Source of the DNA: a plasmid
Reading direction: 5' to 3' (one strand)
Assembly: GCF_054482525.1 (NCBI RefSeq)
Contig: NZ_JBTHVG010000003.1
Length of the DNA stretch: 64,000 nucleotides
The notes beneath the pieces are model-generated. The model was not told where the DNA came from, did not search any database, and saw only the letters and a program-made list of their open reading frames with translations. Position numbers and translations under genes: made by a program. Position 1 is the first letter of the stretch. Every line of letters begins with the position of its first letter. This document shows positions 39,177-62,280 of the stretch, in pieces.

Positions 39177-40124
39177 CTAAGACCAGCGGTAATACTTAAA
39201 GTAGTCCTCATTTACAGCCAAAAACTCCCTTAAACCGTTCATTAATCCCTTTTCAAACGCTGTAACGATAAACCGGTATCCGTCCAGTGTTTCAATGTAG
39301 TAGATCCCGCCCGGTGTTATTCCAACATGCAACACCTCGGCTGTCATCATAAACTGGCCTTCCGGAAAATCATGCGACAGGTATATAAAACCCGTCGTGG
39401 CCGGTGCGGGTGTGGCATTCACTAAGACACCGTTAAACTGCTGCCCGTGCCTCGCCGGTACAAGCTCACTTCCCCTGGTTGACTTATCGAGCAGCCCCTT
39501 AACATCTTTTTGCTCTTTAGATGAGGTATAGCCCCGCACATCACTCCCATCACCTGGGCGAGAGCCGGTGCCGACATGTGCAAGACGACGGTAAGCGCTG
39601 CGCATATTGATGTGGCAGGATGCCCCGGCTCTACCCTGAAGCCTTACGCCAAAATCTTCGCAAAGTAATAAAATCTGACGTAGCTGGTGTTCATACACGG
39701 ACGCAGAAAGTGAAAGGTTGAAACTGGAAAAGGTCAGTTCTAAAACCTTTTCCCGTTTGTCATTGAAATGTGCTTCCAGCCTGATGATTGGCTTTTCCGA
39801 CATTGCAAAAGCTTTGTCCGTTGCTCTGTACCGGCATTCATCTCCGAAACATTCTTCAACAACGCTGGCTATAACCGTGTCGTGATCGCCATCTTCCGGA
39901 GCTGGCACAAAGATTTCAAATTGTGCCGGTGTCTCCGGCTCCAGCAGAACGGGATATAAACGCGGAGAATTAAGCAATGCGCATTCAGAATTAATGAGCT
40001 TAACCCAGGCGCTTTTGTCGTCCGGATCCTTAAGCTGCTGTCCAAGGTTATCGCAAAAGTCTACTATCTGACGGGTATGCTCATCCGTGACTGCACAGAT
40101 CAGGTTAAGACCATGCGTGGCCAT
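39177..40124 (-). CDS. Hypothetical protein (about 315 aa from ATG at 40124; the listed ORF extends to a TTG at 40220)
   Basis: Long ORF downstream of the HigB-like gene; start uncertain. Confidence 0.45.
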   Translation of the reverse strand: MATHGLNLICAVTDEHTRQIVDFCDNLGQQLKDPDDKSAWVKLINSECALLNSPRLYPVLLEPETPAQFEIFVPAPEDGDHDTVIASVVEECFGDECRYRATDKAFAMSEKPIIRLEAHFNDKREKVLELTFSSFNLSLSASVYEHQLRQILLLCEDFGVRLQGRAGASCHINMRSAYRRLAHVGTGSRPGDGSDVRGYTSSKEQKDVKGLLDKSTRGSELVPARHGQQFNGVLVNATPAPATTGFIYLSHDFPEGQFMMTAEVLHVGITPGGIYYIETLDGYRFIVTAFEKGLMNGLREFLAVNEDYFKYYRWS

Positions 40125-40366
40125 ACTCAATTCCCGGGTTCGGGACTGGGAATTGATCGACCAGGGGTTAAGTGAAAGCGAAATAGGGCTTATGGAAGGG
40201 ACGACCGTCTCATTCTGCAAATCTGTAAGCTGGCAGTTCGCAGTAGGCTTCGGGGAAAGGGTACTAAATATGTAACTTGCCTATTGTTTAGTACTGGCCT
40301 GGATATAAAACATCGCGTCCATGCTTGTATCCCGGGATGAAATTGAAAATAGCTTCATTTTTAACC

Positions 40367-41617: not shown

Positions 41618-44008
41618 TTATGTTTGAGGGAATTCTATAGCAAATGTGGCCGTGCCAGATTGACCACTTACAGCGGGAGTAACGGGATACGTGCGCTCTT
41701 CACCATTACCAAGATCCAGTGACAGCGATTTAGTTTCACCAGGCTGGACCGTAACTCCGGCAACCGTAACGCCGAACTGGGCATTTTTCTGAACAGTCAG
41801 GGTTCCGTTTAACTGTCCGGTAATGATAGAACCGTCCTGACGCCGCAACACACTGGTTCGGATGATGGCCAGCGGCGTGTTGTCCGTTGCTTTCAGTGCT
41901 ACGGCTGTGGCCAGCGTCTTGAGATTATCCAGCATAATCAGATTCGCAGGCTGGTAGGTAAAATTAAGCGTTTTAGTGGTCCGGTTACCTGATTCGTCAA
42001 TAGCCAGTGCCTCCAGATGATACATCTGTCCCGATTCGTCAGTGTTGGGGAAGATTCTGGGGTATTCCGGAATAAAGACATCCTTGGATAACGGCGTGAA
42101 TGCCAGGGTGACCTTTTCAGAGTTAGGTCCACCAGCGAGCTGAAGCGATGTCAGGGAAGCATCCCCAGAGGCATCAGTAACGCTTATGCGAAGGTTCTCA
42201 AGCCCTTTAACCAGTTTTCCTTCTGCGTCTGCGCCATTAAAACTGAACGCGATAACCGGAAGCGTTGAGTCAATTTTCAGCGGTGCATTAAGCGTTTTGG
42301 TTCCGGTGTTTCCAACAAGATCCGTGGCAGAGACGCTAACCACCGTATAATCCCCGTCCGGTAGACCAGCGTATGAGAAGGTGGCGTTTTTGGTTTTATA
42401 ATCGCTTTCACTGACGGTCACAGGCTTCAGCGTGAAAGGTTCCCCCCGGGCATTTTTAAGGGTGGCTTCGAAAACTTTGGTATCCCAGTAGCTGATGTTC
42501 CAGGCGTTGACGCGATCATTATCGGTGGCCGTCATAGTGATTGTCTTGGAGGCCTTGTTTACCTGAGCGACATTAACCACCGGTGGGTTGTTATCCCAGA
42601 TAACCGTAAAATTACCAGCAAGCGCATCGAATATGCTGTCACCATCTTTTCCCGAGTAAAGGTGCAGATACTCAAATCCTTTGTCACTGGTGTAGTTGAA
42701 GTTAACCGTCATCTCGCATGAACTTTGTCCGATAGGTATAGTGCAGAACCAGGCTGCATTTTTTACCGTTCTGAACTTTTGCACGTATGGTCGGGGTTCA
42801 GCGGTTACCTTTATGCGGCTAATGGTGGCGGTTTTAACGCTGATTGAGGCCTGAGTTAACCACTCACTGGTATCACTCCGGTACATCTCTTTAGCCACTA
42901 TCTTCGGGGCTATTTCCATCGCCGGGGCTGGAGTGAAGTTGAGGGAGTTATGATGAATTCGTCTTACTCCTCCTGCCAGAGTCTGGAATTCATGATAAGT
43001 ATCCCCCACATTGGGATATATGTATTTGAAAGTATAAATATTATAAGTGCTATCGGACGTCTGGAAATTCGAGTCCGCCCAGCCATATTTGGAACCGTTA
43101 ACAGCAGTAAAGTCACTTTTTTTCCTTAATACCCGTACGGAAATAGGGTTCTGGAAGACGGTCATGCCAGACTGATAAGTGACCCATGATCCGGTAGTGG
43201 CGTCCTGCACCTGGATGATATCGTCAGGCTTAACCCGATCAATTACGCTTCGGCGGCTTAGTTCGATCCTGTTTCCCGCTTTGTCATAAAGGTAGATCCC
43301 CACTTTATATTCAGAGCGGTTTTCCGGTGCCAGGGCATTGCTGCTTGCGTCGGCGACTTGAACGGTTACGCTACCTTCCACTGTATTAATTTCCGCTGGC
43401 TTTTTACGCTCCACTCCAGCGGCATCGGTTATGAAATATTCAGCATTAGCAAGCCCGGAACCTTTATCACTCAGTCCATTAAAGACCAGTGCCTGGACGC
43501 TGGCGTACTGCATACCGGCTGGTACTGAAGTGAAGATCGCTTCGCTGCCAAAGTTCCACCCGTTTCTCGTATAACTTATGGTACCCGTTGCCGGAGGCGT
43601 TCGGTCAATTGCAAGCGGGTAATCCTGCCGGGAGACCTCCTTCCCTTGCAAGTCGGTAATCACCTCTCTGAGGGTGAAGCTATCTTCTCCCATCGCTGGT
43701 ACGGTCAGAGTCTTGCCGTAATAATCAAAGCCTGTCGAAGATGTGGTACGGTCATCTACGGTAACCAGGCTGCTTTTCGTGCTCCAGATGAGGCTCCCGT
43801 CACTTTTCAGCAGACTGAGCGTAATATAACGGTCCAGACCGGAAATAACGGCAACGTCAAAGCTCGTTACCGGATTAATCCATACGGATGCAGGCGATAC
43901 GGTCTTTTTAACGTTCAGGGTATCTTTAAAGCTGAATTCTGCGATTTCAGCGGAAGCTCCTGCGCTGAAACCTGCAAATGCAATAAGCAGGGCTAGTTTG
44001 ATTTTCAT
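41618..44008 (-). CDS. Secreted Ig-like (Big-domain) surface protein, paralog 1 of 3
   Basis: Signal peptide MKIKLALLIAFAGFSAGASA with AGGAG upstream; repeated D-x-(A/S)GN Ig-like motifs; conserved ISGLDRY N-terminal and LDLGNGEERTYPV C-terminal segments shared with the other two. Confidence 0.6.
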   Translation of the reverse strand: MKIKLALLIAFAGFSAGASAEIAEFSFKDTLNVKKTVSPASVWINPVTSFDVAVISGLDRYITLSLLKSDGSLIWSTKSSLVTVDDRTTSSTGFDYYGKTLTVPAMGEDSFTLREVITDLQGKEVSRQDYPLAIDRTPPATGTISYTRNGWNFGSEAIFTSVPAGMQYASVQALVFNGLSDKGSGLANAEYFITDAAGVERKKPAEINTVEGSVTVQVADASSNALAPENRSEYKVGIYLYDKAGNRIELSRRSVIDRVKPDDIIQVQDATTGSWVTYQSGMTVFQNPISVRVLRKKSDFTAVNGSKYGWADSNFQTSDSTYNIYTFKYIYPNVGDTYHEFQTLAGGVRRIHHNSLNFTPAPAMEIAPKIVAKEMYRSDTSEWLTQASISVKTATISRIKVTAEPRPYVQKFRTVKNAAWFCTIPIGQSSCEMTVNFNYTSDKGFEYLHLYSGKDGDSIFDALAGNFTVIWDNNPPVVNVAQVNKASKTITMTATDNDRVNAWNISYWDTKVFEATLKNARGEPFTLKPVTVSESDYKTKNATFSYAGLPDGDYTVVSVSATDLVGNTGTKTLNAPLKIDSTLPVIAFSFNGADAEGKLVKGLENLRISVTDASGDASLTSLQLAGGPNSEKVTLAFTPLSKDVFIPEYPRIFPNTDESGQMYHLEALAIDESGNRTTKTLNFTYQPANLIMLDNLKTLATAVALKATDNTPLAIIRTSVLRRQDGSIITGQLNGTLTVQKNAQFGVTVAGVTVQPGETKSLSLDLGNGEERTYPVTPAVSGQSGTATFAIEFPQT

Positions 44009-44505
44009 GGGTTGTCTCCTGATCAGGTTCCCCATGATACTTTTTCAGTGTTCGAGATCTTTTCGGGAAAATAGCTAATTTTAATGTTTTTCTTTTCTGC
44101 CCGGCGGGACCTGTTTTGTTCCATTTTTATCAGTGAATGTAATGAGACCGATTCGTCCACTGTTAACAGTGTAAAAGCGAGGTTGAAAGCCAGCTTTGAG
44201 AAGGTTTTCAATAGCTGAAAAAAAATCTTTTTTGAGCATTGGTTTCAAGATGGTTTTCCTTTTATGCCCGGTGCCGCCGGGACGGTGGCATTAAATATAC
44301 GCCATGTAAGTAAATTAATTTTTACCCATTTGATTGTCAATACAAACAAAAAATAAACCATGTTTATTATTTTACCAGCGATGCTATTTTAAAGTCCGTC
44401 TAAAATAAAAAACCAAAAAGTTAAATTTGAAGCCATCCTTCCTAAATTCATTTCTTGCGCATATTAGCCCCTGCTTTAAGTATATAATTTTTGAAAAAGT
44501 TGTCT

Positions 44506-47628: not shown

Positions 47629-50049
47629 ATGAAACATCTCGCTTTTATTACTGCTGTAGCCGGACTCGGTATGTCTGTTCAGGCCCCAGCTCAGATATAT
47701 GAATCGGCCTTTAAGGACACGAACGGTATTGAGATCCACGCCCCGTCTTCTCGTCTTATGCTTAATCCGGCATCACCGGTAACTTTGACACTTATTTCAG
47801 GTCTTGATCGTTTCGTTAATGTCAAAGTCACGAAAGACACTGGAACTGTCATTCTTAATACTACGACTACACGGACGGGTGTATCAGACCGACTAACAGC
47901 TGCTGACGGTAGTGAGTTCTACGGCAAAAAAGTAACTTTGCCTGCTTTGGGTGAAGGCAAATTTGTCGTTCAGATAAACGTGTTAGATCTCAATCAGAAG
48001 CCTGTAGCGACCTATAACTATAACTGGCTAATTGATGTCACCCCTCCAGCGGCAAATGCTCTTACCGCTAATACTGGTTCTGGCTCTACCGCTGGTGACG
48101 TGTGGAAGCTTGGATTAGAGGCAACGGGGCAGTATGACTTCACCTCTTCGGGCGTAAGTGATGCAAATGGTATTGATAAGGGCCTAATATATATTTACAG
48201 GCAGGACGGTAGCCTCTACAGCACTACACAGATGCAGTATGACGTATCCGGCCAAAAGATGTACCACACTTACTCTAAGAATTCAGTTAAGGGAACCGGA
48301 ATACCAGACAGCAACCTGGATGAAGACTTTACTGCAAAAGTTGTTATCTTCGATAACGCAGGTAATAGCCGAACGCTGCCAACTCAAAAATTTCGCTACG
48401 ACAACACGCTGGGTGAGATGACACTGTGGGCCGTTCATGATCCAAATACGTCTTCCAGCGTCGTACCCGGGGTTTCTAATTATCCGGCTTACAAAGCCGG
48501 TATGGTCGTTAACGAAAACCCTATTCGATTAGTCTACCGGATCCCAAAATCTAACTACCGTGCTTATTCAGAAGGTGGGCTTCAGTTCATCAATCAATAT
48601 TCCGCCCCCAAAGAGATAGCTGTAGACAGCACTTATGCTTATGTTGAAATGACTCTTCCCTATGGCTCAATTAATGGGGATATGGCTCGTATGGCGAACT
48701 TTGGCCAGTGGGGAGGGTATTATCCGTCATACAGCCTCGTTCTAAACCCATCTGCAAACCAAACGCCTGCATTTGCGGGTACCTGGGTAGATTTCCTCGA
48801 TGATAAGGGGAACTGGGTTAAGTGGAAGGATTTTGAGAGTGTGGCTTCATCACGACTGCCAATTAAAATTTCCCGACTTCGTTTTAACGTTGAAGCCCGG
48901 CCCTTTGCACAGGAGATCGGCGGTAAGGCGACCTGCACCATTCCGGCAGGAAAAACCTCGTGTGAAGCGCCTGAGACGTTTGATATGGCCTTGGGTACCC
49001 AGGGCTACAATAGAATCCTTTACTTCGTTCGCAGCATCAGCAATCCCATTTTGCGGTCTGAGCAATGGATTATGACACGCTGGAACAATAAACAACTGCC
49101 GGTAATAAACTCGATATCATATGACGAGACTAACAAGCAGCTGGATGTACTGGCGTCACTTGAAGGCGATGGTAACTGGTTCGACTCGGTCTCATTGAGG
49201 GAATTTTATCTTTCCGATAAGAACACCGGTACCCGGATGTCACCAACAGGCGTAATCAAATCTCGTATCTCAGGTAACTACACGATTGCTTATGATTTAT
49301 CCCGTCAGTCTGAAGGAAAATACAACGTTGAGGTCAACATCAGGGACTTCTTCCAGAACCAGACCAATAAAACTTTCGGAGAAATTGCTCTGGATAACAC
49401 TCCTCCGACAGTGGCCATAACATTCGACGGAAAGCCGGTAAAAGACGATACGGTAGTGTACGGCCTGGAGAACCTCAGGATCGCTCTGGCAGATAATCTG
49501 ACAACCCCGAGGATAACCCGTCTTCAGCTCGTAGGTGGCCCCACAGCTGATAACGTTGAGCTTACGTGGTCACCGGCAGGCAAAGATACATACATGCCTG
49601 AGTATCCGAGGCTGTTCCCAAATTTCGAACCATCTGAAAATTATTCAATTAGCGTAACAGTTGCCGATAGTCAGTCGAATACCAAAACCTATACTCAGAA
49701 GTTCAGTTATCTACCGAATAACCTTGTGCAGTTACATAATCTACGCACATTGTCGGTCAGTTCACCTCTCAAAACGACAGATGGCGTACCACTTGCGTAC
49801 CTGTCCACTAACGTTCTGCGTAAGACAAATGGAGAAATTGCTAAAGGGGTCCAGAACGCAACGCTGACTGTGCGGAAGGATGCAGCCTTCGGTATTAAAT
49901 TTAATGGGGCACAGGCGGCTCCAGGCGAGTCAGTTGAGGTGCAAATAGATATGGGCCAGGGGGATAATCTTCTGTTACCCGTTTATCCTTCCGAAAATGG
50001 GAAAGTTGGCACCTCAGAATTCATGATTCAGATCGACGAGTTGAAGTAA
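47629..50049 (+). CDS. Secreted Ig-like (Big-domain) surface protein, paralog 2 of 3
   Basis: Signal peptide; ISGLDRF; D-x-AGN repeats; C-terminal IDMGQGDNLLLPVYP. Confidence 0.6.
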   Translation: MKHLAFITAVAGLGMSVQAPAQIYESAFKDTNGIEIHAPSSRLMLNPASPVTLTLISGLDRFVNVKVTKDTGTVILNTTTTRTGVSDRLTAADGSEFYGKKVTLPALGEGKFVVQINVLDLNQKPVATYNYNWLIDVTPPAANALTANTGSGSTAGDVWKLGLEATGQYDFTSSGVSDANGIDKGLIYIYRQDGSLYSTTQMQYDVSGQKMYHTYSKNSVKGTGIPDSNLDEDFTAKVVIFDNAGNSRTLPTQKFRYDNTLGEMTLWAVHDPNTSSSVVPGVSNYPAYKAGMVVNENPIRLVYRIPKSNYRAYSEGGLQFINQYSAPKEIAVDSTYAYVEMTLPYGSINGDMARMANFGQWGGYYPSYSLVLNPSANQTPAFAGTWVDFLDDKGNWVKWKDFESVASSRLPIKISRLRFNVEARPFAQEIGGKATCTIPAGKTSCEAPETFDMALGTQGYNRILYFVRSISNPILRSEQWIMTRWNNKQLPVINSISYDETNKQLDVLASLEGDGNWFDSVSLREFYLSDKNTGTRMSPTGVIKSRISGNYTIAYDLSRQSEGKYNVEVNIRDFFQNQTNKTFGEIALDNTPPTVAITFDGKPVKDDTVVYGLENLRIALADNLTTPRITRLQLVGGPTADNVELTWSPAGKDTYMPEYPRLFPNFEPSENYSISVTVADSQSNTKTYTQKFSYLPNNLVQLHNLRTLSVSSPLKTTDGVPLAYLSTNVLRKTNGEIAKGVQNATLTVRKDAAFGIKFNGAQAAPGESVEVQIDMGQGDNLLLPVYPSENGKVGTSEFMIQIDELK
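47928..47938. promoter_or_regulatory. Palindrome copy inside the CDS of Ig-like paralog 2
   Basis: AAAAAAGTAACTTTG. Confidence 0.35.
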
Positions 50050-50700: not shown

Positions 50701-50759
50701 ATCGGAGAACCACGGCAGCCTGGCGGCTGCAAATTGAAAACCGCCCCGGTTCGTCCTGT

Positions 50760-52410
50760 TGTTGCCGCACGCCCCGCAGAATATGTATGCTCTGAGGACC
50801 TGTTTTATTAAGGACTCATCCCCTTATGTTGACCCGCAAAAGTATCGATACAGTTCTGCTCTCTGTTGGTGCTGAGAAGCTCTCACAACGAGAATGGGAC
50901 TGGATGAAAATGCTCAAACCCATGGACCCACCACCTGCGATGGTGACGACCTCCATCCTGAAGCGCCGTGGCGATACAGCAGCCCTTACCCTGCTACAGG
51001 ATACCGGGGTTTAATCCATCCTCATGTTGTCCGGTTTTACTCCCCGCCCTCTGAAACGTCTGTTCACAGCCAACCAGTGCTGGACGTCCTTCCTGGATGC
51101 GGGCGGTCTGCGCGATATCGAGGTTGAAGCCGTCACCAAAATGCTGGCCTGCGGCACACGGATACTGGGTGTAAAAGAGTTCGGGTGTGATAACCCGGAC
51201 TGTCAGCACGTAAAGTACCTGACCAACTCATGCGGCAGCCGTGCCTGCCCGTCCTGCGGAAAGAAGGCCACAGACCTGTGGACAGCAACACAGCTGAATC
51301 GTCTTCCTGACTGCGACTGGGTACATCTGGTCTTCACCCTGCCGGACACGCTGTGGCCGGTGTTCGAAAGCAACCGCTGGCTGCTGAATGACGTGTGCCG
51401 TCTGGCGGTGGAGAATCTGCTGTATGCCGCCCGAAAACGGGGGCTGGAACCCGGTATCTTCTGCGCCATCCACACGTATGGCCGTCGTCTCAACTGGCAT
51501 CCGCATGTACATGTGTCTGTAACCTGTGGAGGTCTGAATAAGCATGGTCAGTGGAAAAAGCTGAGCTTCCTGAAAGACGCGATGCGTTCACGGTGGATGT
51601 GGAATATGCGGCAGCTGCTTCTGAAAGCGTGGTCAGAGGGGATGGCAATGCCGGAGTCGTTGTCACATATCACGACGGAATCACAGTGGAGAAGCCTGGT
51701 GCTGAAATCCGGCGGAAAATACTGGCATGTGTACATGTCGAAGAAGACAGCCGGAGGGCGGAATACGGCACGCTACCTGGGTCGTTATCTGAAGAAGCCA
51801 CCAATAGCGGCTTCCCGACTGGCTCATTACAACGGAGGGGCAAGCCTGAGCTTCCGTTACCTGGACCACAAAACGGGAGAAACGGCGACGGAAACGCTGA
51901 CACAGCGTGAGCTGGTCGCGAGGCTGAAACAGCACATCCCGGAGAAGTTTTTTAAGATGGTGAGGTACTTCGGGTTCCTTGCCAACCGTGTGTGTGGAGA
52001 GAAGCTGCCGCAGGTGTACCGTGCACTGGGGATGGATAAACCGGAACCAGTGGCGAAAGTGTGCTATGCACAAATGGTGAAACAGTTCCTGAGTCGTGAC
52101 CCGTTCGAATGCGTGCTGTGTGGCTGCCGGATGGTATACCGCCGGGCCATTGCGGGGCTGAATGTATCAGGGCTGAAGAAAAACGCGCGGGATATCAGTC
52201 TACTGAGGTATATGCCGGCCTGACACAGGCTAAGTGTGCCCGGGAATCGGTGAAAGTATAAAAAACAGCCTGTTACGGTATAAAAATCGACCATACAGAG
52301 AGGGAAACCACCGGAGTGGTGGGAAAAGCAGAAAGGCTCACGTGGCATAAGGCGTGGACAATGGTATCGACTGGTTTTTCAATTTCCTATACGTCAAGCC
52401 TCTTCGTCCT
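50760..52410 (+). mobile_element. IS91-family (rolling-circle) insertion element; boundaries approximate
   Basis: IS91-like transposase gene plus a putative oriIS-like end (tttttcaatttcctatacgtcaagcc, about 52373-52400); the element sits between two blocks of iteron-like repeats. Confidence 0.4.
51024..52223 (+). CDS. IS91-family transposase (HUH Y2 type)
   Basis: N-terminal Zn-binding Cys cluster CGSRACPSCGKK and HUH motif WHPHVHVSV; an in-frame TAA separates it from the upstream ORF 50826-51014, which may belong to the same gene or to an orf121-like gene. Confidence 0.7.
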   Translation: MLSGFTPRPLKRLFTANQCWTSFLDAGGLRDIEVEAVTKMLACGTRILGVKEFGCDNPDCQHVKYLTNSCGSRACPSCGKKATDLWTATQLNRLPDCDWVHLVFTLPDTLWPVFESNRWLLNDVCRLAVENLLYAARKRGLEPGIFCAIHTYGRRLNWHPHVHVSVTCGGLNKHGQWKKLSFLKDAMRSRWMWNMRQLLLKAWSEGMAMPESLSHITTESQWRSLVLKSGGKYWHVYMSKKTAGGRNTARYLGRYLKKPPIAASRLAHYNGGASLSFRYLDHKTGETATETLTQRELVARLKQHIPEKFFKMVRYFGFLANRVCGEKLPQVYRALGMDKPEPVAKVCYAQMVKQFLSRDPFECVLCGCRMVYRRAIAGLNVSGLKKNARDISLLRYMPA

Positions 52411-53734: not shown

Positions 53735-54823
53735 TTAGCTGGCGTTGCTGTTCTTTTTCTGGCTTCGAAGACTACGAATATAGCGCAGTTCTTCAGCGGT
53801 TAAATCATGGACGGTAAGAACATCATCGCCGTCAATCGGGTCAGCTGGTGGGCATAACTCACCTTCTAAAACAGAAGACCCTGAGTTCTCTTCTTCATCT
53901 TCAACCACTTCTAAAGGAGGCTGAGTATTGTTCAAATTCAGATCGGGATCCCGCTTATGAATCTGGAAGTATACTTTTCCGTCTTTCTTAATTTCGGTGT
54001 ACTTGAGGTATCCTATCGATGCCAACTCTTCAAGAGCCTTTCTCACGGTAGCATTCTGACTATTTGCTCGTGTTTTGAGGTTCAGACGATTTTTCAGCCG
54101 AGTAAGGGATATCGGTATAGGATTTGGCGGTAATGACTCTATGAACGTATAGAGAGCCTGGGCGCTTTCCTTCTTGGCCAACTCCTTAATTGCCTTCAGC
54201 TGCATCAAAACCTTATGATCGTATTGATAGAGCTCGAAAATCTTAGGATCAACCTGAAGGACAACCTGATCTGATTCCGGGTCTAACAGGGCAGACTGTA
54301 CCAGATGCGTTGTATAGACTTTGGACGAGTTATTACTGGTGAACGACAAGGTAACGGATGCTAACCTGCGTAAGGAGGCGTCTATACGTTTTCTGGACGC
54401 TGTAGATGAGCGATAATTTTCAGGCGTACATAGCTTGAGGAATTCAGTGAATTTTAAGCTTATCGTGTCATTGTTAATCGGATGATTGGCATAGGTTCGA
54501 ATGATGCCCATCCACGTCTTAAAATCTACTGACATATTAAGACGCTCACCGACAATTGAAATATTGGTGAACCCCTCGCTCTCCATTAAAGAGAGCGTCT
54601 GTAACTCTTTCGTTGCGTCAAAGCCAACCGTTTTATATTCCCGATTTTGACGCCCCACACTCTTTGGTGATGGGACGAACAGCCCGAGCCGCATCAAAGC
54701 AATAGACTGCACCGTACGGTTGCTGTTAGGACGCAAAATGATGTCTTTACCTGATTCTTTCTCTCTAACAGAGAAAGCCCTGGTGACCAGGTCCTGCTGC
54801 TCAGTATCTTTCTCTTTAGTCAT
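53735..54823 (-). CDS. repA: Replication initiator RepA (RepFIB/P1 RepA family, iteron-binding)
   Basis: LMRLGLFVP, DFKTWMGII, LVQSALLDPESDQVVLQVDPKIFELYQYDHKVLMQLKAI and ESAQALYTFIESLP match the RepFIB RepA pattern; iterons on both sides. Confidence 0.8.
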   Translation of the reverse strand: MTKEKDTEQQDLVTRAFSVREKESGKDIILRPNSNRTVQSIALMRLGLFVPSPKSVGRQNREYKTVGFDATKELQTLSLMESEGFTNISIVGERLNMSVDFKTWMGIIRTYANHPINNDTISLKFTEFLKLCTPENYRSSTASRKRIDASLRRLASVTLSFTSNNSSKVYTTHLVQSALLDPESDQVVLQVDPKIFELYQYDHKVLMQLKAIKELAKKESAQALYTFIESLPPNPIPISLTRLKNRLNLKTRANSQNATVRKALEELASIGYLKYTEIKKDGKVYFQIHKRDPDLNLNNTQPPLEVVEDEEENSGSSVLEGELCPPADPIDGDDVLTVHDLTAEELRYIRSLRSQKKNSNAS

Positions 54824-55930: not shown

Positions 55931-58387
55931 TTATTTTAATTCTTCAATGTTAATCATGAACTCAGATCTGCCAGTAAGGCCGGATACAGCAGGGAAAATA
56001 GGAAAGCTACGGCTGTCCCCGAGCCCCAAATCCAGTTGAAGCTCTTTGCTTTCACCTGGCATCGCAGAAACGCCATTTACAGTCACGCCGAATGCAGCGT
56101 CCTTACGGACAGTAAGCACTGCGTCCTGAAGCCCTGTAGCGATTGAACCATCCTTTTTACGCAGCTGGCTGGCATACAGAACAGCCAGAGCAGTATTGTC
56201 AGATGTTTTGAGAGAAGCATTGACAGCTAAGGTTTTCAGATTCTCTAGCCTGACGAGATTGTTTGGAAGGTAGTTAAATTCGACTGAGCTTTCTTTAACG
56301 TTGTTCATCTCATCTTTGGCCTGAACTGTGAGAGTGTATGTTTCGCCTTCATTAAGAGACGGAAAGATCTTGGGATAATTAGGTGCATACAGGTTGTTTC
56401 CCAGATTCACCCAAGACAATTCCACCGCATCAGAAACAGGGCCACCGCGAAGAGTCATACGGCTTAAGGATGGTTTAGTTAGAGCATCGGTGAGCTGTAT
56501 ACGGACGTTCTCCAGCCCATATACTGTTACGTTTTTGCTGATCGGTTTTCCTTCGTAGCTAATACTTACAGATGGTGCTGTATTATCAACGACAACTGTT
56601 TGATAAGGGAGGTTACCGGTATTGTTGAATGTATCTTGGGCATTAATCACCACGTTATAACTGCCTTCTGGTACCTCTTTCATGTTGAACTCATACGTGT
56701 AGTTCCCAGACGCCATATTTCTACCTGTTTGTTTGCCGGTTACGCTTATTTCTGCGTTGTTACGGTTTTTATCTGACAACCAAACTCGATTTACATAAAC
56801 ATGGTCGAAATATGAACCATCTCCAGGTTGATTCACGTAAACCTGGAGAATGTTGGTGGTTTCATTGTAATCAAATCCAGTGACGGAGGGACCCAGTGTA
56901 TGCCAGGCTATATTCTCCCATATAGGGGCAAAGAAGGTTGCTTCGGTGGTTGACCTTACTTCATAGCCACTATGAAGATAACCGGTAGTGCCATTTATAA
57001 TATCCTGGGGCAAAGAGACGGTACAGGTTGTTGAGCCAGCTGGAATACTGCATGTTGCTCCGCCAGTGATTTTTTGATCATATGGCCTGGCCTGTACATT
57101 GAATCGGATATTAGTAAGTTTTATAGGCATATCAGATGCCTTGAACAGGTTCCAGTTTACGCTGTTGAACCATGTTCCATCAGCCTTTTGTCGTTCTATG
57201 GGTGAACTTCCCCAAGCCGGACTCTTTACAGAGGCAGGATCCCAGTTGAGCCAGCTGGCATACTGACCAAGATCTCCTCCAGACCATTGATATGTATTCA
57301 CAGGTCTATAGTAGTTTCCATCTAAGGCACCCTGTGGCAGCTTAACTTCCACGTAGACATAGGTGGCATCTTCGGAAAGGACCTGTACTCCGCCATAGTT
57401 ATTGGTAATGCTCATGCCACCATTTCGATATGGCTTCCAGTTAGTTCTTGGGATACGTATAACCAACTTGTAGGGGTTTTCCAGCACTGTAAGGCCTCGT
57501 TTAAACGGGACGTATCCCGAAGAAATGCCGGGTACAACACTGGTGCTTACACGTGAGTCATGAACTGCAAATGGCGTAAATTCTCCCATTTGATCGTCAT
57601 ATAAAAACCGCTGGGGAGGAATGTTAAGCGTATTTCCTGCCAGGTCCGTAACGATGAAATTGAAGGTGAATTCTTCATCAAGATCACTTGAGGGCATGCC
57701 AGCCTGGGTGTTCATATCTTTAATCCACGGATAGACCGCACGTTTATTGGCTGTGTCATAACTCAGGTTATTGTCGGAGACCACAGAACCATTACTTCGT
57801 TTAATGACAAGACGGATCTTGTCAATTCCACTAGCATCCTCAATACCGTCTGCAAATATAGAAAACTGGCCACTACCGCCTCGGCCCAACTCCCAAAGTG
57901 GCCCAGAAAGTACCATGTCGTAACCTGCGTTTTGACTCGGATAAATACTCTTATAGCGTGGAGGAGTTGTATCAACGATGAAATGATAAGTAGATGTGCT
58001 CACTACAGTCTGGCGAATATCCAGAGTTTCATTGACTACAGTAAAGGTCCCTTCTCCGAGCGCCGGTAGAACCATATCCTTTCCATAGTATTCTGTTCCA
58101 TCGGCAGCAACGATACGATCTGCAACGCTCGTTTTGGTCGAGACGGAGGAATACATAACCTTTTTATCGCTGTCTCGTGTGACCGTCACTCGCTCGTACC
58201 GATCAAGACCCGATATCAAGTTCAGAGTCAAAACACCAGCGGGATTAAGATATGTTTGTGTTGCAGGTTTGATATTCCGAACAGCCTTATTGGTATCTGT
58301 AAATGAGTAGCTAAATACCTGAGCATGTGCCGAAGATACAGTAGCAAGGGCAGTTGCAACCATGCAGCCAATTAGAGTTTTACGCAT
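55931..58387 (-). CDS. Secreted Ig-like (Big-domain) surface protein, paralog 3 of 3
   Basis: Signal peptide; ISGLDRY; D-x-AGN repeats; C-terminal LDLGLGDSRSFPIFP; GGAG upstream of ATG. Confidence 0.6.
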   Translation of the reverse strand: MRKTLIGCMVATALATVSSAHAQVFSYSFTDTNKAVRNIKPATQTYLNPAGVLTLNLISGLDRYERVTVTRDSDKKVMYSSVSTKTSVADRIVAADGTEYYGKDMVLPALGEGTFTVVNETLDIRQTVVSTSTYHFIVDTTPPRYKSIYPSQNAGYDMVLSGPLWELGRGGSGQFSIFADGIEDASGIDKIRLVIKRSNGSVVSDNNLSYDTANKRAVYPWIKDMNTQAGMPSSDLDEEFTFNFIVTDLAGNTLNIPPQRFLYDDQMGEFTPFAVHDSRVSTSVVPGISSGYVPFKRGLTVLENPYKLVIRIPRTNWKPYRNGGMSITNNYGGVQVLSEDATYVYVEVKLPQGALDGNYYRPVNTYQWSGGDLGQYASWLNWDPASVKSPAWGSSPIERQKADGTWFNSVNWNLFKASDMPIKLTNIRFNVQARPYDQKITGGATCSIPAGSTTCTVSLPQDIINGTTGYLHSGYEVRSTTEATFFAPIWENIAWHTLGPSVTGFDYNETTNILQVYVNQPGDGSYFDHVYVNRVWLSDKNRNNAEISVTGKQTGRNMASGNYTYEFNMKEVPEGSYNVVINAQDTFNNTGNLPYQTVVVDNTAPSVSISYEGKPISKNVTVYGLENVRIQLTDALTKPSLSRMTLRGGPVSDAVELSWVNLGNNLYAPNYPKIFPSLNEGETYTLTVQAKDEMNNVKESSVEFNYLPNNLVRLENLKTLAVNASLKTSDNTALAVLYASQLRKKDGSIATGLQDAVLTVRKDAAFGVTVNGVSAMPGESKELQLDLGLGDSRSFPIFPAVSGLTGRSEFMINIEELK

Positions 58388-58543
58388 ATGATGCTCCGGG
58401 AATAGGTTATAGCCTTATTCTACGGATTCAGCCTACAAGGTCCGGTCGGATAAAGTGATAATTTGCCTGTTAAAAGAGACATCAAGTGAGAAAGCAACCA
58501 ACGTACAGAATGCAAAATGGCGGCAGTGCATCTGGATGACGCA

Positions 58544-58554
58544 AAAGTAACTTT
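58544..58554. promoter_or_regulatory. Palindrome copy upstream of Ig-like paralog 3
   Basis: AAAAGTAACTTTTT, about 160 nt upstream of the start at 58387. Confidence 0.5.
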
Positions 58555-58608
58555 TTGTATCCACTTTTTTGGATTTTAGCCTTCAAAATGAGTATTCAAC
58601 CAATCATA

Positions 58609-58619
58609 AAAGTAACTTT
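58609..58619. promoter_or_regulatory. Palindrome copy upstream of Ig-like paralog 3
   Basis: AAAAGTAACTTTTG, about 225 nt upstream of the start at 58387. Confidence 0.5.
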
Positions 58620-58881
58620 TGATAGACGCTGCTCCTTTATGTTTGCCAATTGTGCTGATATGTTTGTAAATTCAAGGAAGCGAGATTTTAAAAGCATCTG
58701 TTGAGTCAAATTTATGTAAAATAACAGGGAAACCATCACTTCTAGGTTGAGGAAACCCAATGTTATACATGCTCTTATGCTGTTTTCTGATAGACTGGCC
58801 CCCTGAATCTCCAGACAACCAATATCACTTAAATAAGTGATAGTCTTAATACTAGTTTTTAGACTAGTCATTGGAGAGCAG

Positions 58882-59247
58882 ATGATTGATGTCTTAGGAC
58901 CGGAGAAACGCAGACGGCGTACTACACAGGAAAAGATCGCTATTGTTCAGCAGAGCTTTGAACCGGGAATGACGGTCTCCCTTGTTGCCCGGCAACACGG
59001 TGTGGCAGCCAGCCAGTTATTTCTCTGGCGCAAGCAATACCAGGAGGGAAGTCTTACTGCTGTGGCCGCAGGAGAACAGGTCGTTCCTGCCTCTGAACTT
59101 GCTGCTGCCATGAAGCAGATTAAAGAACTCCAGCGCCTGCTCGGCAAAAAAACGATGGAAAATGAACTCCTTAAAGAAGCCGTTGAATACGGGCGTGCAA
59201 AAAAGTGGATAGCGCACGCGCCCTTATTGCCCGGGGATGGGGAGTAA
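58882..59247 (+). CDS. insC: IS2 orfA (InsC)
   Basis: [18 protein letters not shown]...; GGAGAG upstream. Confidence 0.85.
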
Positions 59248-60110
59248 GCTTAGTCAGCCGTTGTCTCCGGGTGTCGCGTGCGCAGTTGCACGTCATTCTC
59301 AGACGAACCGATGACTGGAAAGATGGTCGCCGCAGCCGTCACTCAGATGATACGGATGTGCTTCTCCGTATACACCATGTTATCGGAGAGCTGCCCACGT
59401 ATGGTTATCGTCGGGTATGGGCGCTGCTTCGCAGACAGGCCGAACTTGATGGTATGCCTGCTATCAATGCCAAACGTGTTTACCGGATCATGCGCCAGAA
59501 TGCGCTGTTGCTTGAGCGAAAAACCGCTGTACCGCCATCGAAACGGGCACATACTGGCAAAGTGGCCGTGAAAGAAAGCAATCAACGATGGTGCTCTGAC
59601 GGGTTCGAGTTCCGCTGTGATAACGGAGAAAAACTGCGAGTCACGTTCGCGCTGGACTGCTGTGACCGTGAGGCACTGCACTGGGCAGTCACTACGGGCG
59701 GCTTCGACAGTGAAACAGTACAGGACGTAATGCTGGGAGCGGTGGAACGCCGCTTCGGCAACGAGCTTCCGGCGTCTCCAGTAGAGTGGCTGACGGATAA
59801 TGGTTCATGCTACCGGGCTAATGAAACACGGCAGTTTGCCCGGATGTTGGGGCTTGAACCGAAGAACACGGCGGTGCGGAGTCCGGAGAGTAACGGCATA
59901 GCAGAGAGCTTCGTGAAAACGATAAAGCGTGACTACATCAGTATCATGCCTAAACCAGACGGGTTAACGGCAGCAAAGAACCTTGCAGAGGCGTTCGAGC
60001 ATTATAACGAATGGCATCCGCATAGTGCACTGGGTTATCGCTCGCCACGGGAATATCTACGGCAGCGGGCCAGTAATGGGTTAAGTGATAACAGGTGTCT
60101 GGAAATATAG
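59205..60110 (+). CDS. insD: IS2 orfB (InsD), DDE transposase
   Basis: 301 aa; overlaps orfA in the -1 frame. Confidence 0.85.
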
Positions 60111-60264
60111 GGGCAAATCCATCTGATGCTCAACAGTACATTCGTTATGTTCAGAGCAATGTCTGCAATAAGTAAAGGATCCGCTAAAGAAAACCGGTCT
60201 GAAATATCGCTGATAGTCCTAGCAACACTTGGAATCGCATCACCATTCAGGTAATGACTCCAAC

Positions 60265-60768
60265 TTATTGATAGTGTTTTATGTTCAGATAATGCCCGAT
60301 GACTTTGTCATGCAGCTCCACCGATTTTGAAAACGACAGCGACTTCCGTCCCAGCCGTGCCAGGTGCTGCCTCAGATTCAGGTTATGCCGCTCAATTCGC
60401 TGCGTATATCGCTTGCTGATTACGTGCAGCTTTCCCTTCAGGCGGGATTCATACAGCGGCCAGCCATCCGTCATCCATATCACCACGTCAAAGGGTGACA
60501 GCAGGCTCATAAGACGCCCCAGCGTCGCCATAGTGCGTTCACCGAATACGTGCGCAACAACCGTCTTCCGGAGCCTGTCATACGCGTAAAACAGCCAGCG
60601 CTGGCGCGATTTAGCCCCGACGTATCCCCACTGTTCGTCCATTTCCGCGCAGACGATGACGTCACTGCCCGGCTGTATGCGCGAGGTTACCGACTGCGGC
60701 CTGAGTTTTTTAAGTGACGTAAAATCGTGTTGAGGCCAACGCCCATAATGCGGGCGGTTGCCCGGCAT
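60265..60768 (-). CDS. insB: IS1 InsB (expressed as an InsAB' frameshift fusion)
   Basis: 167-aa ORF overlapping insA. Confidence 0.85.
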
Positions 60769-60962
60769 CCAACGCCATTCATGGCCATATCAATGATTTT
60801 CTGGTGCGTACCGGGTTGAGAAGCGGTGTAAGTGAACTGCAGTTGCCATGTTTTACGGCAGTGAGAGCAGAGATAGCGCTGATGTCCGGCGGTGCTTTTG
60901 CCGTTACGCACCACTCCGTCAGTAGCTGAACAGGAGGGACAGCTGATAGAAACAGAAGCCAC
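60687..60962 (-). CDS. insA: IS1 InsA
   Basis: 91 aa with Zn-finger CPSC...CSHC. Confidence 0.85.
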
Positions 60963-61034
60963 TGGAGCACCTCAAAAACACCATCATACACTAAATCAGT
61001 AAGTTGGCAGCATCACCCACCATTCATTGTCGCA

Positions 61035-61499
61035 ATGATTACTATTAATGAAAGTATGACATCTAAAACAGTAACAGATTTTTCTTTGGGTGCTCAGTGG
61101 TACGGAATGGTTTCAGCGGTAGCGCTAATGGGGTTATATGCTCGACGCGTTTGGAAAGAGAAGAAGTCCTTATTTACTGGCGCTTTCCTGGCCTCTTCCT
61201 TAATGGCCTTTATTTTTACTGACAGCCTTGTTTTCGTATCCCAGAAGGACACCGGCGTTCTGGCTACTTTCGTACTCGATAAAAACGCTGGAGATATTGA
61301 TTGTAGTCGCCCGGCTATGATTGTCCATTACAGTAAAGGTGTTCCAACGGACTGGCGTTGCCCAACCAGTATCATGTTGATGGCGTATTCTTCATATCCT
61401 TTTTTACCCTGGCCTGAGTATAGCCATGGTACCAGCCAGTCTCTTACGGTTGTTATTGATACATTTATGGAAAACGCTGTTAATCTCAGCCAAAAATAA
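61035..61499 (+). CDS. Hypothetical membrane protein
   Basis: 154 aa with hydrophobic helices; begins 18 nt after the IS1 end. Confidence 0.4.
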   Translation: MITINESMTSKTVTDFSLGAQWYGMVSAVALMGLYARRVWKEKKSLFTGAFLASSLMAFIFTDSLVFVSQKDTGVLATFVLDKNAGDIDCSRPAMIVHYSKGVPTDWRCPTSIMLMAYSSYPFLPWPEYSHGTSQSLTVVIDTFMENAVNLSQK

Positions 61500-61556
61500 A
61501 AAATAAACCTCACTAGTGAGAGGTTTTATAAACCTGAGCCACCAATCTAATTAACT

Positions 61557-61838
61557 CTATATTTTTGTTTTAGCTTTTTTAAAGATAGACTTACCGAATA
61601 AAACAGCAATTATAGAGCAAAGGCCTGGCGTTAGGACAAAAGCTAATAATGCACTGCCAAAACTTGTCATTTCAGGCACCAGGAACCAGCTGATAGGCCA
61701 CGTCAGGGCTGGTAAATTTAGCGGATCATAAAGCGCATGTAGAGCGCTTAACACACAGTAAAGTGCTAAAAAGCAAACTAGATAAACAACGATCCACATT
61801 TTAATTTGCTCAGCAATTTCAAATTTTGGACTGCCCAT
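61557..61838 (-). CDS. Small membrane protein
   Basis: 93 aa, three hydrophobic segments; overlaps the upstream gene by 20 nt. Confidence 0.4.
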   Translation of the reverse strand: MGSPKFEIAEQIKMWIVVYLVCFLALYCVLSALHALYDPLNLPALTWPISWFLVPEMTSFGSALLAFVLTPGLCSIIAVLFGKSIFKKAKTKI

Positions 61839-62280
61839 GCTTTACCTCAGTGGCTGAATATTGATGGTTAATATCTTTAATCACCCGTAAGCACTTAGTG
61901 CATACCTTAGTTCGATTTGTCTGCTTGTCCAGAGTGTATTTAACTTCAAGTTGACCTCCAGCATTAAGCAAAGTGAGCATCTCATCTTCTAACACGCTTC
62001 GGTAAATGGTCTTGGCCGAGAGTGTGCCCGGTAACGAGTACTCAACATAATTGTTTGAAACTCTTACCGATTTAGGGATTTTACCACTGAGCTGGGTTTC
62101 ATTCGTTGAAGGCATTACAGTTACTTTAATCACAGTTGCCGGTGACCAGAAATCCTGATAACGCACTTTATGAATTTTATCAGCTCTAAGGCCTAACCAC
62201 ACATTTCCGGCGATAAGAACAATAAGCAATCCATAAACTGATCGTCGAATGTTACGCCTTTTAATCACAATGTCCCCCAT
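61819..62280 (-). CDS. Hypothetical protein with N-terminal transmembrane anchor
   Basis: 153-aa ORF. Confidence 0.45.
   Translation of the reverse strand: MGDIVIKRRNIRRSVYGLLIVLIAGNVWLGLRADKIHKVRYQDFWSPATVIKVTVMPSTNETQLSGKIPKSVRVSNNYVEYSLPGTLSAKTIYRSVLEDEMLTLLNAGGQLEVKYTLDKQTNRTKVCTKCLRVIKDINHQYSATEVKHGQSKI

Follow-up and report, generated by a model that had tools for sequence, protein, structure and literature searches.

The window analyzed here is a 64-kb (64,000-nucleotide) stretch of plasmid DNA representing the backbone of an IncHI2 resistance plasmid. A 362-aa ORF at 53735-54823 lies 1108 bp from an Ig-like gene, the same spacing as that of the annotated repHI2 in pSTM6-275, and the distance from repHI2 to the locus described here amounts to 1.1 kb plus that one Ig-like gene between them. 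The Ig-like gene adjoining the insertions encodes 818 aa on the minus strand, with its start codon at 58387. Beyond it stands a plus-strand gene of 208 codons, cut into three pieces by two insertion sequences, IS2 and IS1. In the list that follows, IS2 is placed by its ends, its length, and family models, IS1 by its ends and a family model, the gene fragments by reconstruction, and the intergenic region by the ORF map and the sequence.

52-4940: MOBH-type relaxase and coupling protein
41618-44035, 47629-50049, and 55931-58387: three DUF4165/Big_3 Ig-like paralogs
about 50.7-52.4 kb of the window: IS91-family element
58388-58759: actual intergenic region, flanked by the divergent Ig-like (minus) and 208-codon (plus) genes
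58760-58790, plus strand: gene fragment 1, codons 1-10 (MLYMLLCCFL) and 1 nt
58786-58790: IS2 target-site duplication TCTGA, left copy
58791-60121, plus strand: IS2, complete, 1331 bp
58882-59247, plus strand: IS2 orfA
59205-60110, plus strand: IS2 orfB
60122-60126: IS2 target-site duplication TCTGA, right copy
60126-60249, plus strand: gene fragment 2, codons 11-51 and 1 nt
60237-60244, plus strand: GCATCACC, an 8-mer identical to the IS1 outer tip
60241-60249: IS1 target-site duplication CACCATTCA (9 bp), left copy
60250-61017, minus strand: IS1, complete, 768 bp
60962-60687, minus strand: IS1 insA, a 91-aa ORF
60768-60265, minus strand: IS1 insB', a 167-aa ORF
61018-61026: IS1 target-site duplication CACCATTCA, right copy
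61026-61499, plus strand: gene fragment 3, codons 52-208 and the stop codon
61505-61526: terminator-like hairpin, 3' of fragment 3

The termini of the IS2 copy are canonical (TAGACTGGCC at the left and GGGGCAAATCCA at the right); a 26-nt probe for the right end matches without mismatch and occurs once in the 64-kb window, which contains a single IS2. Among NCBIfam models, orfA matches NF006928, "IS2 repressor TnpA," over 121/121 positions (276 bits, cut-off 229), and orfB matches NF006918, "IS2 transposase TnpB," over 301/301 (708 bits, cut-off 597). An A7 slippery run is located near 59146-59152, within the orfA/orfB overlap, and PGAP labels an identical IS2 copy "programmed frameshift." The element is oriented with its left end toward the Ig-like gene and its right end toward the remainder of the disrupted gene, and the final A of the right TCTGA, at 60126, is also the A of the ATG that forms codon 11 of that gene. 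In length (1331 bp), canonical ends, overlapping orfA and orfB with a slippery A-run, and 5-bp duplication, this copy is like known IS2 (IS3 family, IS2 group), and its mechanism is no different. What is particular here is that one IncHI2 sublineage has inherited it and can be recognized by it, and that its site falls exactly at the usual PGAP start codon, masking the disruption in annotations.

The IS1 copy lies 128 bp farther on (the gap is 60122-60249) and is transcribed toward IS2. It is bounded by the termini GGTAATGACTCC...GGCAGCATCACC. Both ends match the IS1 end pattern GGTRATG...CCAACTTAYTGAT, part of imperfect terminal inverted repeats of ~23 bp, with no mismatches, and the degenerate end pattern matches nowhere else in the window, which thus contains one IS1. 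The IS1 ORFs match the NCBIfam model NF033558, "IS1 family transposase," with 91 bits over its N-terminal part and 146 bits over its C-terminal part, and an A6C frameshift motif, TTAAAAAAC, is found on the minus strand near 60706-60716. The duplication of 9 bp agrees with the published IS1 range of 8-9 bp (PMC5009759, PMC12428005). The element is therefore like known IS1 in its 768 bp, its ~23-bp imperfect repeats, its insA and insB' with the A6C motif, its 9-bp duplication, and its AT-rich target. It differs in its setting: the insertion is private to the window, and other plasmids have an IS1A of independent origin at a distance of 11 bp, beside the 8-mer that resembles the IS1 tip. The coordinates and numbers of the original prediction, namely IS2 and IS1 128 bp apart with intact duplications of TCTGA and CACCATTCA, hold, as does its placement of the site ~400 bp upstream of the Ig-like gene, the IS2 left end being 403 bp from the start codon at 58387. 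An origin as a composite transposon or by recombination was considered and rejected, since each element is present in single copy in the window with its own intact duplication.

Removal of both elements, with one repeat copy each, restores a 208-codon plus-strand ORF that runs across both sites. The gene is 627 bp long, starts with the ATG at 58760, and has a GAGGA 6 nt before that ATG. IS2 cuts it after codon 10 and IS1 within codon 52. From fragment 1 the reading frame runs 16 codons into IS2 before it meets a stop; fragment 2 shares its frame with IS2 orfB and begins five codons past the orfB stop; and fragment 3 appears in the ORF list as a 154-aa ORF starting at 61035. On the sequence evidence this ORF is a genuine gene, because it has homologs of 37-47% identity, a conserved N-terminus, a GAGGA before its ATG, and a PGAP call of the full 208 aa. 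That call is found in CP031547 (WP_000966519.1), whereas in most records the PGAP CDS starts at codon 11 and yields a protein of 198 aa (WP_046788420.1). The PGAP start at codon 11 coincides with the IS2 junction, so the disruption is concealed in annotations, and in hundreds of records the broken gene passes for an intact one of 198 aa. A minus-strand ORF of 80/91 aa across the junctions was also considered and was rejected as a real gene, as it has no family match and the plus-strand ORF has conserved homologs.

These findings relocate the insertions: rather than sharing a short intergenic stretch, as had been proposed, both elements lie inside one conserved coding sequence. The native intergenic region, 372 bp at 58388-58759 with a GC content of 35-39%, is untouched by either element; it includes the GAGGA Shine-Dalgarno sequence (58749-58753) and one promoter-like site (58643-58672). 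A search of 58380-58800 for inverted repeats or palindromes (seed 7, length ≥10) returned none. The genes downstream of the disrupted gene, ORFs of 93 and 153 aa, are convergent with it.

The encoded protein belongs to a conserved, unnamed family of plasmid proteins. As reconstructed, its gene shows 98-100% identity to the IncHI2 members (WP_000966519.1 and WP_046788420.1), and more distant homologs, of 206-212 aa with 37-47% identity over 97-100% coverage, are encoded by pOXA-48-like plasmids from Klebsiella and E. coli as well as by plasmids from Pantoea. Alignment shows an N-terminus, MLYM-LC-F-M, that is kept across homologs; with these distant relatives the protein has in common the MLYM-LC-F N-terminus, the QW, WRCPT, and PFLPWP motifs, and two invariant cysteines. 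An AlphaFold model (pLDDT 77.8, pTM 0.70) predicts transmembrane helices at residues 2-26, 34-58, 65-96, and 99-123, followed on the C-terminal side by a small predicted domain that contains the two invariant cysteines and the WRCPT and PFLPWP motifs. The product is thus predicted by the model to be a four-helix membrane protein, so far uncharacterized. From the predicted helix positions, IS2 would cut the gene in helix 1 and IS1 in helix 2, the latter next to the nearly invariant Pro50. Searches with the disrupted protein gave sub-threshold matches alone in Pfam, no match in NCBIfam, and nothing better than E = 0.13 in Foldseek against the PDB, and comparison of IncHI2, pOXA-48-like, and Pantoea plasmids showed no conservation of the gene neighborhood. 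Unlike intact members of the family, the window's gene is in three pieces, and the full protein cannot be made.

Comparison with relatives free of the elements establishes that the flanking repeats are real target-site duplications, because the uninterrupted relatives hold one copy of each. In pSTM6-275 the empty site carries a single copy of each target, ...CTGTTTTCTGATGCTCAAC... and ...GCATCACCATTCATTGTCGC..., and excision of each IS together with one repeat from the window gives 100% identity to 856 PLSDB plasmids. The 523-bp empty-site segment is present in 1106 PLSDB plasmids, 856 of them uninterrupted and 250 with IS2. In all 250 the IS2 occupies the same position in the same orientation, both junctions are 100% identical to those of the window, and the window's IS1 is absent. 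Complete E. coli genomes give a similar picture, with about 194 uninterrupted and about 72 IS2-containing records among 270 with the segment. Counted as records that have this IS2 at this site and lack the window's IS1, the E. coli set comes to 73. The broken IS2 allele is therefore carried by 23-27% of the sequenced plasmids with the segment, and about 75% keep the gene intact and identical. Hosts of the allele include E. coli, Salmonella, Klebsiella, and E. fergusonii, and its carriers include plasmids typed as conjugative. In contrast to IS2, the window's IS1 junction is absent from PLSDB and from the complete E. coli genomes. IS1 consequently came second, into a gene that IS2 had already disrupted, because it is private to the window and the IS2 allele is widespread. 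The earlier view of two independent, simple insertions is borne out by the same data: 250 PLSDB plasmids have IS2 without IS1, the IS1 junction is in no record, and each element is single-copy. One record, CP100896, seemed at 100% query coverage to have the same arrangement of IS2 and IS1, and was rejected because its IS1 lies ~1 kb away, in the region of the neighboring 153-aa ORF. Likewise, two apparent "alleles" of a neighboring ORF (450 and 462 bp), which might have signified recurrent IS2 insertion or recombination, were discounted; they have the same DNA and differ in nothing but the called start. Papers found in a literature search for this IS2 site in IncHI2 plasmids mention IS2 copies, traG::IS2, and virB6::IS2, and nothing on the present locus.

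Other plasmids carry further insertions in or at the same gene. Here they are placed by gene nucleotide, counted from the ATG at window position 58760.

nt 26-30 (TCTGA): IS2, forward, the lineage allele; 250 PLSDB plasmids, about 72 E. coli records, and the window
nt 135-143 (window 60230-60238), duplication TGGAATCGC: IS1A; pTB4019 and pTB4328, both without IS2
nt 146-154, duplication CACCATTCA: IS1; the window only
nt 172, joined to a segment of the resistance region whose neighbor in CP031547 is ISEcp1 (ISEcp1-type unit); read-archive assembly SRR8655894
nt 227-231, duplication GGTAC (5 bp): a second IS2, reversed, 1321/1331 identical; PV022938
about nt 358: end of an IS91-family element; GCA_022556515 and GCA_002546935
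15 nt ahead of the ATG, in a plasmid that has lost the gene: IS5; p21AR0133A
upstream intergenic region: ISApl1; pS441

At least seven independent IS-associated breakpoints thus lie in or at the 627-bp gene, at least five of them besides the window's two. The two IS2 events are 200 bp apart and in opposite orientations. The two IS1 events are independent, 11 bp apart, and in the same orientation, the IS1A site being upstream of the window's IS1 target; the window's IS1 and the IS1A of pTB4019 differ at 7/768 positions. Insertions are also found nearby. The neighboring 523-bp segment with the 93- and 153-aa ORFs is intact in 232/268 E. coli records and shows at least three breakpoint classes, one of them in roughly 30/268, and individual plasmids have IS66, IS91, and IS3-family insertions at the nearby Ig-like genes. 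As a rough baseline, the E. coli records all keep a 523-bp stretch of repHI2 uninterrupted (274/274). The GC content of the targets is 35-40%, vs. about 45% in the flanking genes.

Taken together, these data make it likely that the locus records two sequential, unrelated transpositions into a single accessory gene of the IncHI2 backbone, AT-rich and dispensable. The most parsimonious reading of the sequences is that one old IS2 insertion was inherited by a successful sublineage and was followed by a recent, private IS1 insertion. According to this model, IS2 would have entered after codon 10, generating its 5-bp duplication, cutting helix 1, and leaving the rest of the coding sequence without the promoter and ribosome-binding site that had served it. 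The IS2 allele would then have been inherited and spread with a successful plasmid lineage. Later, IS1 would have entered codon 52, in helix 2, with its 9-bp duplication; the gene being already broken, this second event was probably cost-free, and it is private to the window's plasmid. The net result is the gene in three pieces. That the gene is dispensable is suggested by the broken allele in 23-27% of the plasmids with the segment, some of them typed as conjugative. The IS1 event appears to have been neutral, and a regulatory effect of either element seems not to be involved. In kind, simple insertions of IS2 and IS1 into plasmid accessory genes are already known and are textbook events.

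Several other explanations bear on the same observations. The original prediction raised selection for altered expression of the flanking genes, which would require IS-borne outward or hybrid promoters, or upstream disruption, that change expression of the Ig-like paralog or of the convergent 93/153-aa ORFs. IS2 and IS1 do create hybrid promoters in other contexts (IS2 at ampC; IS1 hybrid promoters), and the left end of the present IS2 points toward the Ig-like gene, so that any read-out from it would run in the sense orientation of that gene. The arrangement is also like known cases of IS promoter activation (IS2 upstream of ampC, IS1/IS5 at bgl) in having an IS end beside a start codon, with the IS2 right end facing a downstream ORF. 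However, both elements lie within coding sequence and not in a promoter region, and the left end of IS2 stands 403 bp from the Ig-like start codon, with the 372-bp intergenic region untouched. A promoter and terminator scan of 58300-61600 yielded 4 promoter-like sites against 3.9 expected by chance, with no outward promoter-like sites from the IS ends on the relevant strands, and no -35 element within an IS end was paired at proper spacing with a flanking -10 element so as to face an intact downstream gene. In contrast to the known cases, an acceptable and suitably spaced -10 is missing here: the best hybrid assembled manually at the right junction of IS2 (TGGAAA-16 nt-TCTGAT) has 8/12 matches, without the key A in position 2 of the -10. 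Moreover, what lies downstream of the IS2 right end is the rest of the broken gene, without its first 10 codons (part of helix 1) and cut again by IS1, and then the hairpin at 61505-61526 and convergent genes. Rightward read-out would therefore reach only gene remains and the hairpin, the window's IS1 stands between IS2 and its sole downstream target, and no selection scenario is evident. The weak hybrid promoter, together with the frame that fragment 2 shares with orfB past the orfB stop, may permit some residual expression of a truncated product. As far as the sequence goes, nothing indicates that either element would alter expression of a neighboring gene, and selection for such a change appears highly improbable.

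The number of breakpoints in and at the gene, at least seven in 627 bp, might instead suggest that it was loss of the gene itself that was selected. In this scenario the 208-aa protein is costly or limits success in some hosts, and knockouts by any IS are favored; the frequency of the IS2 allele, 23-27% of backbone plasmids across E. coli, Salmonella, Klebsiella, and E. fergusonii, could be read in the same way. Yet the neighboring accessory segment bears a similar disruption load, with its one class in roughly 30/268 records, so the pattern is not peculiar to this gene. Hitch-hiking with an epidemic lineage of resistance plasmids can account for the frequency of the IS2 allele, the gene is intact and identical in about 75% of plasmids, and its conservation in distant plasmid families argues for general usefulness. 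Selection for loss is accordingly unlikely, and quite unlikely in the stronger form of recurrent adaptive inactivation of a membrane-protein gene in epidemic IncHI2 resistance plasmids. If that were true, the gene would encode a costly or host-range-limiting function whose loss aided the spread of the lineage. A further alternative is targeting, which was originally put forward as an insertion hot spot. The finding that at least five unrelated transposase families are represented argues against a single sequence-specific targeting mechanism. Tolerance is favored over targeting because different IS families have hit the gene and because the neighboring accessory segment has been hit about equally often, a statement of no excess over neighbors that refers to one neighboring segment and one essential-gene control and to raw event counts, not phylogeny-normalized. 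The hot-spot idea therefore survives, weakly, for IS1 alone, given the IS1A 11 bp away and the 8-mer, and gives way for the other families. The regional pattern is best read as tolerance of insertions by AT-rich, dispensable accessory DNA, to which a weak local preference of IS1 may add. This tolerance reading fits the published finding that IS1 favors AT-rich DNA and that IS2 has no target motif (PMC5009759).

Two same-orientation IS1 insertions 11 bp apart are nonetheless more than pure tolerance predicts. They could be accounted for if a target sequence resembling the IS1 terminus attracts the IS1 transposase or InsA, leading to repeated IS1 insertion within a few base pairs. Tn9/IS1 hot spots, as reportedly described by Galas, Calos, and Miller in 1980, resemble IS1 ends. 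At the present locus the 8-mer GCATCACC overlaps or abuts both IS1 duplications (CACCATTCA and TGGAATCGC), and there is a loose likeness between the target, TTGG-N4-GCATCACC, and the IS1 end, TTGG-CA-GCATCACC. The 8-mer occurs in just 0.55% of random 90-bp backbone chunks, a post hoc observation, as the motif was noticed after looking. The independent IS1A of pTB4019 and pTB4328, with its 7/768 differences and its own duplication, lies in the same orientation 11 bp upstream, and the insertion region is AT-rich, in line with the published IS1 preference (PMC5009759). Against a specific attraction, probes of 10-14 nt gave no significant match, there are just two IS1 events at the site among >1,300 plasmids, a third IS1 (CP100896) lies ~1 kb away in the 153-aa ORF, and the remaining nearby insertions are of unrelated IS families. 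The neighboring IS1A and the tip-like 8-mer are hints of a micro-hot-spot, not proof of one, and attraction by an IS1-like target is possible but rather doubtful. A further possibility is that the IS1-end-like motif acts as a built-in IS1 trap inside the gene.

A local preference of IS1 is compatible with sequential insertion into a dispensable gene and concerns merely the exact landing point of IS1. For the protein family, conserved on plasmids and as yet unnamed, the broken alleles now document an apparent natural dispensability. The two insertions are also of practical use in following these plasmids: the common IS2 insertion is a clean, cheap lineage marker of a large IncHI2 sublineage, and the IS1 insertion is a private marker of the window's plasmid.

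The start codon assigned to the 208-codon membrane-protein gene split by IS2 and IS1 (58760-58790, 60126-60249, and 61026-61499) determines how its disrupted copies appear in databases. The usual PGAP call, WP_046788420.1, is a 198-aa protein that starts at codon 11 (L001, L002, L005, and L006), and codon 11 coincides exactly with the IS2 junction. As a consequence, hundreds of records list an IS2-disrupted copy as if it were an undamaged “hypothetical protein.” A Shine–Dalgarno site, together with conservation among homologs, supports the 208-aa start at 58760, and the annotation of CP031547 uses this longer form. The second gene fragment, which opens at the ATG at 60126, shares its reading frame with IS2 orfB and begins five codons past the orfB stop (60108-60128, TAG GGG CAA ATC CAT CTG ATG, from stop to ATG). 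It is conceivable that a truncated product would be made from the second fragment by translational re-initiation.

Alignment places the reconstructed 208-aa protein in a conserved, unnamed plasmid family, with members on IncHI2, pOXA-48-like, and Pantoea plasmids. The family has no model in Pfam or NCBIfam and no structural match in the PDB. The protein is predicted to contain four transmembrane helices followed by a small domain, which carries two invariant cysteines and the motifs WRCPT and PFLPWP. Several database proteins (P0009, P0036, and P0042) represent a frameshifted C terminus of this gene, in which the frame switches at a T6 run, converting PFLPWP to PFYPGLS.... The run lies as follows:

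~61400-61415, T6 run in the 208-codon gene, context ...tatccttttttaccctgg...

These C termini reflect either homopolymer sequencing errors or genuine slippage variants.

The IS1 target contains, at 60237-60244, the sequence GCATCACC, which is the same as the outer 8 nt of IS1 itself (61010-61017). The independent IS1A insertion in the same gene of plasmids pTB4019 and pTB4328 has its duplication directly upstream, at 60230-60238. This stretch may be an IS1-end-like micro-hot-spot (p ~0.005, uncorrected and post hoc).

The surrounding region contains three Ig-like paralogs of ~800 aa each, which share one architecture, bear signal peptides, and are grouped around repHI2, as well as an IS91-family element just downstream of the second paralog:

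41618-44035, minus strand, Ig-like paralog (DUF4165, Big_3_2, Big_3_3)
47629-50049, plus strand, Ig-like paralog (DUF4165, Big_3_2, Big_3_3)
~50709-52400, IS91-family element (transposase ORF 51024-52223, plus strand; Y2_Tnp and Zn_Tnp_IS91 domains)
55931-58387, minus strand, Ig-like paralog (DUF4165, Big_3_2, Big_3_3)

The original prediction had mentioned two palindrome sites of the third paralog. The divergent intergenic region, 58380-58800, contains no inverted repeat of at least 10 nt (seed 7, arms within 60 nt), and at those settings the two sites are therefore absent from it. For two further large ORFs on the minus strand, 29796-32180 (794 aa) and 39177-40220 (347 aa), Pfam yielded nothing at E <= 1e-5.

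In other plasmids, the Ig-like paralogs are often broken by IS66, IS91, or IS3-family elements. In two further assemblies, L012 and L013, an element end is inserted into the 208-codon gene, and the 77 nt at 50707-50783 match this end exactly; the same end also occurs near the Ig-like gene in pHZ010 (L005). Among 268 E. coli IncHI2 records, ~30 keep the control segment, a 523-bp piece of the neighboring 93- and 153-aa ORFs, only to the right of ~61978, a point inside the 153-aa ORF (61819-62280); this is a further inherited breakpoint class among the neighboring accessory ORFs.
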